The position numbers and the translations under genes are program-made. This document shows, one piece after another, positions 2,717 through 11,350 of a stretch of DNA of 22,300 nucleotides (its first letter is position 1; each line of letters opens with the position of its first letter). The stretch is from the IMG/VR virus record IMGVR_UViG_3300039155_000018, positions 64,001 to 86,300 of that record, one strand, 5' to 3'. Source of the DNA: a virus (Duplodnaviria > Heunggongvirae > Uroviricota > Caudoviricetes). Under the pieces are notes generated by a model. The model saw only the letters and a list, made by a program, of their open reading frames with translations, did not search any database and was not told the DNA's origin.

Positions 2717-3508
2717 TTACTTAGTGACGAGAAGTGTAATGCCTTGCTGATCCAGAAGTTCACGAAGAACCTCAAACTGTGCATCAGTGAGAGCAGCACC
2801 AGCAGAGTCTTGAGCAACTTGCTTGATGTAGTATTCTTTCAGTTGCAGACCACCAGAATGACCTACAAAGCCGACAGCGTTAAACTCGCCATCAACAACA
2901 GCGTTCGGAACGAACTCCGGGTTGTAACCATAATGATCGCCATAAATAACAGCAAACTCATTGGTATTAACCAGAGCAGTTGCGTCTGCGATAACGGCGT
3001 AGGTTTGGTTACCAGCAACACCCTGAGAGATGACCGGAGTCAGAGCACCAGCATCACCAGCCACGGTAGCGGTCAGGTCGGTTACGTTAGTGTTCGGAGT
3101 GGCAGAAGCGAATACAGCTTCGGCTGCGGTAGCGCCGGCAACAATGGTGTAACCAGACAGAGTACCGGAAACAGCAGCACTGCCAACAGTTACGCCCGTA
3201 ATGAACGCCTGAGCAATCTGAGCAGCAGTAGCGCTACTGGCATCGGTGATGGTAATCACACGACCAGCAATAGTAATTGTCGCGTTCTCACCAGCAGCAG
3301 TGACATCTTCAAAGGTGAAGGTTGCAGTTTCGGTGTTGTTGAAAGCAGGGGTAGCCTTGGCACGGAATACAACTTGACCAAGCTTAATAGGAGCAGAAGC
3401 AGCCGGAGGGGTTACGTTAACACTTTTGCGGGAGTAACCAACGCTCGGGTCTAGTTCATGTACAACAAGATCGCTGAAACGCTTGCCAGAGATAGTTTGA
3501 AAAGCCAT
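2717..3508 (-). CDS. Head decoration/stabilising protein with an inserted Ala/Thr-rich domain (263 aa)
   Basis: Lies between protease and capsid genes, where Felix O1/PAK_P1-like phages encode a decoration protein; strong codon bias; AAGGA RBS. Confidence 0.7.
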   Translation of the reverse strand: MAFQTISGKRFSDLVVHELDPSVGYSRKSVNVTPPAASAPIKLGQVVFRAKATPAFNNTETATFTFEDVTAAGENATITIAGRVITITDASSATAAQIAQAFITGVTVGSAAVSGTLSGYTIVAGATAAEAVFASATPNTNVTDLTATVAGDAGALTPVISQGVAGNQTYAVIADATALVNTNEFAVIYGDHYGYNPEFVPNAVVDGEFNAVGFVGHSGGLQLKEYYIKQVAQDSAGAALTDAQFEVLRELLDQQGITLLVTK

Positions 3509-6476: not shown

Positions 6477-6593
6477 CTAGAATGGTAAATTATTAGTTCT
6501 CCCGATTGCGCCTGAAGCTAGGGAGCCTGCGATGGTTGGTAAGTTTTTCTTTTGTGACAGTGACGCATACGCATCTGCAACAGCGTCAACCTG
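6477..6593 (-). CDS. terL: Terminase large subunit, exon 2 (38 aa: QVDAVADAYASLSQKKNLPTIAGSLASGAIGRTNNLPF*)
   Basis: Joining it to exon 1 restores the conserved nuclease motif DD|QVDA..DA. It begins immediately after a terminal G of the intron. Spliced product is 495 aa. Confidence 0.92.
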   Translation of the reverse strand, partial: QVDAVADAYASLSQKKNLPTIAGSLASGAIGRTNNLPF

Positions 6594-7590
6594 CATTTAC
6601 TTGTTAATCAAGGCTCGTTAATTCCTTGACCACCCACTTTAATCTCTACCGTAGTTATTACGGGATGTAGCACCTTTGTTAATATGTTCACTTAGGAACA
6701 TACAAGCTTCTCGGGAGTACGTGTCATTCCCCGGAATCTTCAAGTCTTTCTCTAGATTGTACTTGGTGTTACCTTCCTCAAAACCAAGAAGCCAATCATC
6801 AAAACCCTCTAACTTCGGCAAATCTTCTAGGAAGTTAGCAAAACACTTCCAGCGATCATCGACAAAACAACGTCCGTAGTACCCTTTGTCATCTTTAGGG
6901 TTATAGCAACGCTTCATCATGTTGCTCCAGAGTTGTTTAGCCTGTTTCCAATAAGGCTTTGATTTTGAATACTCTCCAAGATAGCCTATGCCAAGAAAAC
7001 TCTTACTGTACGGATCAGAGACTTTGCCAACTTTTACATTTTCAATAAAACACTCTCGAATATATCCTGTATCATTGAACTTAACGATACACTTCTTGGC
7101 GTTCTTCTTGATGATGGTAAACTTGTGACCACTGTTGGAGATTCCTGCCTCTTGGCAATCTTCCCAGTCTTTCAGCGCGTGATGAGGTTTTGTATAATCT
7201 TTTACTTTACCAGCTAGTAGGTTTGCCCTGTAAACAAGAGTCTCGTAACCAGAATCTACAAAAGACACTAGAAACTTTTGACCTTGCTTTTCAACAACCC
7301 GAACATCCCCGTACTTGTTAGTAGGCATTACGTCGCCGATCTCAATTGCAGTTAGAGCTTTACGTCCCATAGAAATTCTCCTATATTATTAACTTAGTGG
7401 GTGCTGCATATCGCTATGCAGAGCAGACTATCTCTTCACGCTCTAAAGCGTGCTCCCCGTTTCGGGCCACTTGACCCTACATAATAGTCGTTACACGTTC
7501 CTATTTCTAGGCTTCGCTCGGGATTGTCTCTTTAAATTCTTATAGAAATGTTCCCCGAATTAGAGGAGTTTATAGACGACCAGTTTGTCA
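6594..7590 (-). mobile_element. Group I intron (IA-type, 997 nt) in terL
   Basis: Exon 1 ends in U, and P1 is GACGAU/GUCGUC with the U-G pair. P3 CUCCUC/GGGGAG; P4 UUCGGG/CCCGAG; P7 GACUA (7485-7489)/UAGUC (7426-7430); P7.1 GGGUC/GGCCC; P8 CACGCU/AGCGUG; P9 CUGCAUA..UAUGCAG; P9.1 CACCCACU/AGUGGGUG; P9.2 GUCAAGG/CCUUGAU; terminal G at 6594. Confidence 0.93.
6639..7370 (-). CDS. Intron-encoded homing endonuclease (His-Me/HNH-like, 243 aa)
   Basis: Looped out in P9.1; AGGAG RBS; C-terminal W.NM.KRCY...RW..F.NFL.D...LEKD block typical of phage homing endonucleases. Confidence 0.8.
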   Translation of the reverse strand: MGRKALTAIEIGDVMPTNKYGDVRVVEKQGQKFLVSFVDSGYETLVYRANLLAGKVKDYTKPHHALKDWEDCQEAGISNSGHKFTIIKKNAKKCIVKFNDTGYIRECFIENVKVGKVSDPYSKSFLGIGYLGEYSKSKPYWKQAKQLWSNMMKRCYNPKDDKGYYGRCFVDDRWKCFANFLEDLPKLEGFDDWLLGFEEGNTKYNLEKDLKIPGNDTYSREACMFLSEHINKGATSRNNYGRD

Positions 7591-8961
7591 ATCGTCTTTA
7601 TTCTTCCTTTCTCCTGTGAACTGTTCGAGTTCATCAAAGAAAGTATCATTCCAAGGACCCTCGATATAATCAATAAGCCCCATCTCGGCAGCAGTAGCAA
7701 ACGGTTGGAAACGTAAGACTTTACTCTTACTCCCCGTCCCCATAAAAGCAGGGGTAAACCCTTCATACTGCAAAGCCTTCAGTTGAGCGCCGGCTGCAAT
7801 CTTACCTGCTTGTCCCGGCTCCTTCGGCAAGAGAATCTTGGTTCCATAAGGATCTTTTCGGGCACAATCAATGATACGCTGCATTACAGTCCCGTAGTTT
7901 TCGCGGAACCTTTCGACATCAATGATTACATACCTACCTTGCTTTGTGCGGGCCATTAAAACGCCGGCAGAAAAATCTGGATTTGTATTTACCTCTGAGG
8001 GCTTACTTCCAGCAAGGTCCCACGCACGAACATAGGACACAAACTCTTGCTCGTGGTACTTTACAGGGAGTGTCCAATCCTTCTGAAAGAAATTTGAAAC
8101 CTCCTCTTTTACGTCCCAACTCCCGTAGAGGTCGCGCTCGCGCTTTACACGCTTCAGACCTTGGAGGTTTGCGAGGTAGCCAGGGTTTGCCCTGAGCAAC
8201 GGCGGGTTATCGAAGATGGTTGCACTGATAAACTGCAAAGAAAGTGGTCGGCAATGTTGATGTTCTGACTCATCTGGGATAAGATTACCATTCAGATCAC
8301 GATTACCGTACTTCTCTAGGAGTTCTTCTCTCGTGTCAGCCCAGATCATTTCACTAGAATCACGAATGAACCAACGAATCTTACCGTCTCGTTCTGGGTT
8401 AGGGCGACCAGAGTTCTCTTCGCCTTGTGGAATAATCCACCAATCAATCCAACGTCTAATAAATGATGTTGGGGAGGGATTGCACGAAATCCAGAGCGAG
8501 GGCTTCATCTTCGCTTGTGTGCGAAGACGAGACAAAATTACAAGTACATTTTCTTCAGAAAATTGCGTACCCTCATCTAGCATTGCCGCACTAATCTGCA
8601 ATCCACGGTATTTCTCGGCATCTTCCTCTGTATCCAAGTGCCCAAAGGCAACTTGGCCACCAGAAGGAAAAATCCAACGCATCTCCTTTGCTTTATACAC
8701 AGCATCTGGGTATACGTCTTTATACAAACCTTTTGATTCGTCAATAACACCACCAGCTTTAGCTAGGGTTGTCTGGTGTTTACGAATTACATACCCTCTG
8801 TAGAGAGGGTCTTCGACCCATCGTAGATGGCGCATAAGACCGTTGAAAGTCTTACCACCACCCATGGCTCCGCCATAAATGATGATGTCAGCATTACTTT
8901 GTAGGAACATGGCCTGCTTTTTACTAGCAGGCCCAAACACTTTCTTCTCTTCTTTACTCAC
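7591..8961 (-). CDS. terL: Terminase large subunit, exon 1 (457 aa, GTG start)
   Basis: Walker A GGAMGGGKT, Walker B AMLDE, coupling motif SCNP, nuclease WDLA; ends KNKDD at the intron boundary. Confidence 0.95.
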
Positions 8962-10231: not shown

Positions 10232-11014
10232 TTACATCCCACAAGGACGTTCTTCCCACTTAATGTGATAACTTCCAGTACCTGCAAGTTGCAATGAATT
10301 CTTGAATAGGGATTGAGGGACTTTCACCCTCACTCTTTCTTTAACGTCTATGTGGAACAAAGACGACTCCTTGTCGGGAGGAAATAAGAAAACCCACAAG
10401 AAGTGGGTTATAGAAAGCCCGATGCTATAAGCAGAGCGGGAACTTGGATTAGGGATATTATTTAACTTTCTAAGTCTTTGAATCTTAGACCTGTGCATCC
10501 CCATGAGAGGAGCTATTGCATAGTCTGAGAGGCCCGTTTTACGAAATTCAGCGATAGTTTCCAGATCATCTTCCGTATGCCCCGAAGATAGACCTGACCA
10601 TGAACCGAATTCTCTATTATACTTGGCGTTACAGGAACGAGAACACAGAGTCTTCAAACCTCTCATGTGCCTTTTCTCTCGCTGGAACTCTTTTCCACAA
10701 TAAGCACACCTGCAATCAAAATAGGTTCTGCCTTCTATATGCGCCTTTGTTTTAGCTTTATGTTCTTCTATGGTAAGAACCTGAAGATTGTCTAAGGAAT
10801 CATTAGTGCAGTCATTATCAATATGGTCTGCCTCCTCGTTGTCGGTCAAGTATCTCCCAATATTAACGCCTAGAAGATACCTAGCATATGCGATGGTAGT
10901 CCTATCGTCCATGCTGTTAACAAGATCAAGTCTTGTCCTACCATCCTTTTTGCAAGTTCTTAGATAACCTTTGCTCCAATCCAAACAAAATGGATATTCT
11001 AACTCTATTAACAT
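10232..11014 (-). CDS. Free-standing HNH homing endonuclease with Zn finger and HTH; the last ~70 codons are probably read-through
   Basis: HNH motif EADHIDNDCTNDSLDNLQVL..EH; C-X2-C...C-X3-C (CAYC...CSRSC); HTH-like LSDYAIAPLMGMHRSKIQR; GAGG RBS. Confidence 0.85.
   Translation of the reverse strand: MLIELEYPFCLDWSKGYLRTCKKDGRTRLDLVNSMDDRTTIAYARYLLGVNIGRYLTDNEEADHIDNDCTNDSLDNLQVLTIEEHKAKTKAHIEGRTYFDCRCAYCGKEFQREKRHMRGLKTLCSRSCNAKYNREFGSWSGLSSGHTEDDLETIAEFRKTGLSDYAIAPLMGMHRSKIQRLRKLNNIPNPSSRSAYSIGLSITHFLWVFLFPPDKESSLFHIDVKERVRVKVPQSLFKNSLQLAGTGSYHIKWEERPCGM
10381..10409 (-). terminator. Intrinsic terminator inside the 3' tail of the HNH ORF
   Basis: AACCCAC-UUCUU-GUGGGUU followed by UUCUUAUUUC. 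Confidence 0.6.
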
Positions 11015-11143: not shown

Positions 11144-11226
11144 TGGAGAGCGAAGTGGGAGTCGAACCCACATTTTCAGTTCCAGTTACCCTTAACTTTT
11201 TAGAAGAAAGTTGGGACTATTCGCTC
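11144..11226 (-). ncRNA. tRNA-like RNA (83 nt) with a UCU anticodon arm but no D-arm
   Basis: Acceptor GAGCGAA/UUCGCUC + U + encoded CCA; canonical T-arm GUGGG-UUCGACU-CCCAC; hairpin AACUUU-CUUCUAA-AAAGUU. Confidence 0.75.
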
Positions 11227-11245
11227 TTAATTGGCTTCTACTTTA

Positions 11246-11273
11246 GCTCTAATCCAGACTGAGCTACGAGAAT
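11246..11273 (-). pseudogene. tRNA 5' fragment (acceptor strand and D-arm only)
   Basis: AUUCUCG-UA-GCUC-AGUCUGGAUUA-GAGC is a normal tRNA 5' third; no anticodon arm, T-arm or matching 3' acceptor strand follows. Confidence 0.6.
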
Positions 11274-11276
11274 ATA

Positions 11277-11350
11277 TGGTGCCCACACTCCGTAACGCTC
11301 GGAGGACTAATACTTACAAGGTACTTGTTATACTATTTAACTATGTGGGC
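11277..11350 (-). tRNA. tRNA-Thr(UGU) with non-canonical D- and T-loops
   Basis: GCCCACA/UGUGGGC + A + CCA; D-stem GUUA/UAAC; anticodon arm AGUAC-CUUGUAA-GUAUU; T-arm CUCCG-AGCGUUA-CGGAG; 74 nt. Confidence 0.85.

Follow-up and report, generated by a model that had tools for sequence, protein, structure and literature searches.

Why the gene for the large terminase subunit (terL) of an uncultured phage of the class Caudoviricetes should stop immediately behind a conserved acidic motif of the nuclease domain is the question raised by the stretch of DNA analysed here, a window of 22,300 nucleotides (nt; positions 64,001 to 86,300) of the 86.3-kb viral record IMGVR_UViG_3300039155_000018. A first-pass annotation had read TerL as ending at ...KNKDD-stop and had proposed that a group I fold, running from 7590 to a G at 6594, splits the gene, that its removal joins DD to QVDA, and that automated annotation would miss the second exon. 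Our analysis makes it very probable that a mobile 997-nt group I intron, IA-like and without P2, interrupts terL right after the second Asp codon of the (K/H)DD motif, that it carries an open reading frame (ORF) in its P9.1 loop, and that splicing gives a TerL of 495 amino acids (aa). The interrupted gene consists of the following parts.

7591..8961, minus strand: terL exon 1, 457 codons, which encode the ATPase domain together with the greater part of the RNase H-like nuclease domain, ending ...ERKNKDD.
6594..7590, minus strand: group I intron, 997 nt, opening with the U next to the 5' splice site and closing with the terminal G at 6594 (RF00028, 81.1 bits).
6477..6593, minus strand: terL exon 2, 38 codons and a stop, QVDAVADAYASLSQKKNLPTIAGSLASGAIGRTNNLPF, which adds the final nuclease-domain helix and the C-terminal tail.

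The last codons of exon 1 are ...AAT AAA GAC GAT, ending at 7591, and the TGA that follows them is made up of the first three bases of the intron. Exon 2 opens at 6593 with CAG GTT GAC GCT (QVDA) and reaches its stop at 6477, so that the splice boundaries read GACGAU|UGAC... on the 5' side and ...AAAUG|CAGGUU on the 3' side, with the terminal G of the intron (omega G) at 6594. These junctions are fixed by colinearity with intronless homologs together with the rules of a U.G pair at the 5' splice site and a G at the intron end. The in-silico join of 7591 to 6593 yielded a 495-aa TerL with the peptide ...NKDD-QVDAVADAYASLSQK across the junction, and this protein aligned gap-free through the junction with 22 intronless homologs recovered in a search of 5.8 billion proteins. 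The closest of them, P0001 (88% identical, 494 aa), is encoded on the intronless contig L004 and reads ...KNDQVDAVADAYASLSQKK... at this place; the DNA of L004 runs uninterrupted through the junction and agrees with the opening 45 nt of exon 2 at 43 of 45 positions. Intronless homologs thus continue DD with QVDA, the Asp residues on both sides being invariant, and the truncated end, the extent of the fold and the splicing frame given by the first-pass annotation were all borne out.

The identity of the interrupted protein was supported by domain and structure comparisons. Exon 1 is matched by Pfam Terminase_6N, by PHROG 979 (2.8e-158) and by Terminase_6C over positions 2-132 of 155, a coverage that reaches 154/155 once exon 2 is included, as shown for P0001. 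The AlphaFold2 (AF2) model of P0001, with a predicted local distance difference test score (pLDDT) of 86.7, matches solved TerL structures at E values of 1e-16 to 1e-10 and resembles the large terminases of D6E, Sf6, HK97 and T4 as well as the nuclease domains of G20c and herpesvirus terminases. When TerL was compared with the PDB by sequence and by profile, no match emerged.

The intron itself was recognised by the Rfam model RF00028 (Intron_gpI), which matches the window at 7404-7646(-) over the full model (1-253) with an E value of 1.7e-19 and a score well over the gathering score of 50 bits; judged as a sequence match, this score is far above chance level. It was the only group I match in an Rfam search of the 86.3-kb record. 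The elements recognised within the intron, together with its ORF, are listed here.

7575..7596, minus strand: P1, composed of exon GACGAU (7596..7591), loop L1 (7590..7581) and internal guide GUCGUC (7580..7575).
7404..7568, minus strand: catalytic core with P3, P4, P5, P6/P6a, P7, a hairpin between P7 and P3' (P7.1/7.2-type), P8 and P9, according to the Rfam alignment.
7396..7403, minus strand: 5' strand of P9.1, CACCCACU, a perfect 8-bp complement of 6638..6631 with which it brackets the ORF.
6639..7370, minus strand: intron ORF, 243 aa and a stop, a putative homing endonuclease in the P9.1 loop.
6631..6638, minus strand: 3' strand of P9.1, AGUGGGUG, directly after the ORF stop.
6608..6629, minus strand: P9.2 hairpin, UCAAGG-AAUUAACGAG-CCUUGA, recognised by comparing the 3' tails among 10 introns.

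The helices were examined in an alignment of eight introns inserted at the same site or near it, onto which the helices of the window intron were mapped. In P1, U7591 and G7580 form the U.G wobble at the 5' splice site, and each of the eight introns pairs at 6 of 6 positions, a compensatory change having turned G-C into C-G in L005 and L006. P10, formed between intron CAAACUG (7587..7581, in the P1 loop) and exon-2 CAGGUUG, pairs at 6 of 7 positions and covaries among the relatives; both helices are therefore just as the first-pass annotation had described them. Over the 35 pairs of P1, P3, P4, P6, P6a, P7 and P9, 99.6% of pairings were canonical and 21 pairs showed double compensatory changes, compared with 25-44% canonical and 3-5 pairs with double compensatory changes in a control in which the 3' partner was slid by 1-3 columns. 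The conserved core P3-P9, its P3/P7 pseudoknot included, thus has support from covariation. The conserved J8/7, P7 and terminal-G elements and all core helices are intact in the window intron. An IA-like architecture is plausible for it, because a hairpin (GGGUC-AAGU-GGCCC) sits between P7 and P3'; one such hairpin is present in the window intron and two in L003, L007, L008 and L009. A small hairpin replaces P9.1 and the ORF in ORF-less relatives, and the ORF is therefore an insertion in the P9.1 loop. The loop of P9.2 (6614-6623) contains UAACGA(G/C) in all 10 related introns, and its stem covaries; the ACGA of this loop recurs in the exon half of P1, so that base pairing of the loop with the internal guide, or else a tertiary contact, is conceivable. 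A promoter scan inside the intron gave no match above shuffle expectation.

Introns at the same site in other phages provide further evidence. The identical codon boundary is occupied by homologous group I introns in at least seven other phages, represented by Pseudomonas phage KIL1 and the contigs L003, L007, L008, L009, L013 and L014, the contigs examined representing five homolog clusters that end at the DD motif and two contigs found via the endonuclease. Their Rfam scores lie between 61 and 82 bits, except for L007, which was read by eye. The best documented case is that of the phages vB_PsyM_KIL1-KIL5 (Flaumdravirus; NC_030934), which carry an unannotated intron of 770 nt at the 3' end of terL.

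Locus L001 of KIL1 (NC_030934), 3019-3224 and about 2440-2470 of the locus: region of the terL 3'-end intron and missed exon 2.

The KIL1 intron shares with that of the window the insertion point KDD|QVDA, the P1 with its internal guide sequence, the position of the ORF in the P9.1 loop and the family of the encoded endonuclease, and the ribozyme cores are 77.5% identical over ~240 nt, whereas the two TerL proteins are only ~40% identical and the KIL1 endonuclease is shorter (178 aa, with one N-terminal barrel in place of the two of the window protein). The RefSeq terL of KIL1 stops at KDD-stop, and an unannotated exon 2 (QVDATSDAF..., QVDATSDAFHALSSEQ...) follows downstream of the intron with its annotated 'HNH endonuclease'. 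Three Rfam group I matches were found in the KIL1 locus, of which the first lies inside terL, the second at its 3' end and the third in the portal gene; introns are not mentioned in the paper on the KIL phages. Among the homolog clusters, 10 of 120 have gene calls that stop with the DD motif. The omission of exon 2 by automated annotation, anticipated by the first-pass annotation, was thus found in a reference genome and in these clusters.

The intron is also polymorphic among close relatives. Contig L004, with 83% nt identity over the coding sequence, has no terL intron, and L012, whose TerL is 87% identical at the aa level, lacks the DD-site intron. An ORF-less group I intron of L012 (L012:2245-2459; Rfam 93.5 bits) splits the Walker A motif at GGAMG|GGKT, and contigs of related strains from runs X2, X3 and X4 contain a 272-nt insertion at the same Walker A position (window 8859/8860, terL codon 34/35); one strain of run X4 apparently has both the Walker A and the DD-site introns. 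In 33 of the 120 homolog clusters the protein begins with the Met of Walker A, which suggests that the Walker A site is widely occupied, a group I intron having been verified there in L012 only. Contigs of four DNA runs contained no intronless joint at 6594/7590, the strains either carrying the intron or not bridging the site. At least two places in the terL of this clade, Walker A and the DD motif of the nuclease, are hot spots for introns, and the patchy presence of the intron among close relatives fits a mobile element.

The intron interrupts a conserved acidic motif of the nuclease domain. Among 30 full-length homologs K37 and the acidic residues D315, D370, D456 and D459 (P0001 numbering) are invariant, in keeping with the Walker A motif and acidic triad of a large terminase with both Terminase_6N and Terminase_6C; the equivalents of the four acidic residues in the window TerL are D315, D370, D457 and D460. 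As both flanking Asp residues are invariant, the intron lies between two of them, D457|Q-V-D460, and in the AlphaFold model of P0001 a helix (456-469) begins at the junction. Position 2 of the Pfam profile is residue 313 of P0001 and residue 399 of T4 gp17, and by this shared anchor D315 corresponds to T4 D401. The distance from D315 or D401 to the Asp of the DD motif is 141 residues in P0001 and T4 gp17 alike, where T4 reads HDD542-LVMS. The catalytic triad of T4 gp17 consists of D401/E458/D542 (PMC3074133). By its position the intron would follow the codon of the third catalytic carboxylate, with D457 in the place of gp17 D542.

From these data we infer splicing, a dependence of packaging on it and an active endonuclease. 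The primary transcript would encode TerL residues 1-457 only, because TGA follows the splice site, and guanosine-initiated splicing at the two boundaries would join the exons. Exon 2 would supply the 495-aa TerL with the last nuclease helix (DQVDAVADAY...) and the C-terminal tail, so that splicing should be needed for a complete terminase and, through it, for headful cutting and packaging. Homing would be driven by the 243-aa protein, which presumably cuts terL alleles without the intron near the insertion site.

The ORF of this protein is preceded by an AGGAG Shine-Dalgarno sequence 8 nt before its ATG. Its product matches PHROG 2081, labelled 'HNH endonuclease', at 3.6e-48 and also the PHROG families 953, 374 and 3377 with the same label; PHROG 2081 is present in polymerase introns of Bastillevirinae as well (PMC11878797). 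None of its 151 homologs has a Pfam domain, and 27 positions are invariant in the family. A candidate HNH-like motif, which is not a canonical HNH, is formed by L-D207-K208-D209 ... N215 ... N231 (LDKD...N...N). The AF2 model (pLDDT 89.8) contains two SH3/Tudor-like barrels and a C-terminal alpha/beta domain; neighbours in the AlphaFold database named AP2-domain or HNH proteins share residues 117-238. No sequence match to the PDB and no significant Foldseek match to it was obtained, and the sole PDB nuclease matched by the full-length model, PacI, gave a weak match (Z 4.6, root-mean-square deviation 3.3 over 86 residues). Homologs of the protein occupy the equivalent intron position in KIL1, L013 and L014. 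In L003, a free-standing homolog of 245 aa (P0189; L003:2977-3714) lies just upstream of terL, and the DD-site intron is ORF-less; the endonuclease family therefore exists in both intron-borne and free-standing form.

A free-standing canonical HNH gene (260 aa, DHIDND...N...H) of the same window adjoins two tRNA-like genes (window 10232-11014 and 11147-11350), one of which scores low as a tRNA (37 bits) and lacks the greater part of the D-arm region in the Rfam alignment. The 243-aa protein has no similarity to this HNH gene.

Several observations weigh against our interpretation of the locus. The equation of D457 with T4 D542 rests on motif, spacing and position in the secondary structure and not on residue-level alignment, since direct comparison with T4 gp17 by hhalign, hmmsearch and pairwise alignment either failed or gave results too weak or unstable for residue mapping. 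The 243-aa product has no Pfam or NCBIfam match, and no His is invariant among 34 aligned homologs, which makes its nuclease activity uncertain; it is best described as a putative homing endonuclease from a family that bears the HNH label but is not curated, and not as a proven HNH enzyme. Finally, certain phage group I introns splice in vivo only (PMC11878797).

The features of the 243-aa protein bear on the explanation that the intron is spliced and fixed while the product of its ORF has lost homing endonuclease activity, being degenerate, restricted to DNA binding or maturase-like. The missing domain models, the LDKD...N...N motif without an invariant His and the weak structural match to an HNH enzyme would all fit such a protein. 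Yet the 151 homologs with their 27 invariant positions show the family to be strongly conserved, its members are found in same-site introns and free-standing beside terL in L003, and the patchy presence of the intron among close relatives is what ongoing mobility predicts, so that we consider a loss of activity possible but unlikely.

An extension of the homing explanation is suggested by the homologous introns of L005 (L005:4392-4724) and L006 (L006:4392-4621), which lie one codon upstream, at GHD|DIPD. They are preceded by CACGAU in place of GACGAU, and the guide is compensatorily changed to GUUGUG. On the basis of this shift to HD|D, with the same ...ACGAU and the compensatory guide change, the DD-site intron lineage might also move by guide-directed reverse splicing, the ORF then representing an uncharacterised His-less nuclease family, intron-borne and free-standing, as the two SH3-like barrels and a domain otherwise fused to AP2 domains could indicate; we regard this combined proposal as rather doubtful. 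The last intron base of L005, as deduced from the frame, is A and not G, which may mean that the copy is defective, that the assembly is wrong or that the 3' splice site is unusual.

Less probable still is that the intron is a genuine group I intron without autonomy, which would need host or phage factors in vivo, or whose inefficient splicing would act as a brake on late-gene expression. Several introns in terL, polymerase and ribonucleotide reductase genes of Bastillevirinae are indeed spliced in vivo and not in vitro (PMC11878797), and the window intron has no P2 and only one of the two P7-P3' hairpins of its relatives. The intact core helices, J8/7, P7 and terminal G, and an Rfam score well over the threshold, speak for an autonomous ribozyme.

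That terL is really a split or shortened gene, with a 457-aa product that works alone or with a separate 39-aa peptide and with a ribozyme that is a relic, is extremely improbable: phage genes split by endonuclease insertions exist, and an ORF (6477..6596) begins with an ATG in frame with exon 2, but this ATG (6596..6594) has no Shine-Dalgarno sequence before it and varies among relatives (ATG in some, TTG in KIL1 and L008, AAG in L014, ACA in L005), the ribozyme core is structurally constrained across divergent phages, and exon 2 holds an invariant Asp and is colinear with uninterrupted genes. The ATG consists of the last three bases of the intron and gives rise to a spurious ORF of 39 aa; owing to the variation among relatives and the lack of a Shine-Dalgarno sequence, it is probably a by-product of the conserved bases preceding the terminal G.

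A mobile, self-splicing intron in terL would not stand alone among phages. Mikkonen and Alatossava reportedly described in 1995 a group I intron in terL of Lactobacillus phage LL-H. The terL of E. coli phage rV5 carries a group I intron as well (PMC3606486), and the terL group I introns of Bastillevirinae, which are Bacillus phages, have recently been shown to splice (PMC11878797). Like the terL intron of the window, the introns of these phages lie in the essential large terminase gene; they are self-splicing group I introns, often with HNH-type ORFs and with splicing proven for some, but they belong to other phage lineages and TerL families. The texts on the LL-H, rV5 and Bastillevirinae introns report no insertion at the nuclease DD motif, the insertion sites themselves not having been compared.

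The td, nrdB and nrdD (sunY) introns of T4 belong to subgroup IA2, with an extra element between P7 and P3' and an ORF looped out from a peripheral helix. They resemble the window intron, for which an IA-like architecture is plausible, in the endonuclease ORF in a peripheral helix and in the location in the conserved catalytic region of an essential enzyme; they differ in their host genes, in having P2 and both P7.1 and P7.2, and in encoding GIY-YIG or canonical HNH endonucleases. The terL intron of the window is hence a familiar kind of phage selfish element, terL group I introns being already known, and the current understanding of group I introns and terminases is left unchanged by it.

The finding is useful above all for correcting terL annotation and for recording the nuclease DD motif as a place of repeated homing. 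In the phage of the window, in the KIL phages already published and in ~8% of the related TerL clusters from metagenomes, gene calls break off at the catalytic DD motif, and the last nuclease helix and the C-terminal tail are therefore lost from the annotation. The natural terL alleles with neither intron, with either, or, in one metagenomic strain, apparently with both could serve as a system for the study of homing and competition. For the biology of these phages, the intron is a well-resolved further case of a mobile intron lodged among the most conserved catalytic codons of a late gene that is essential.

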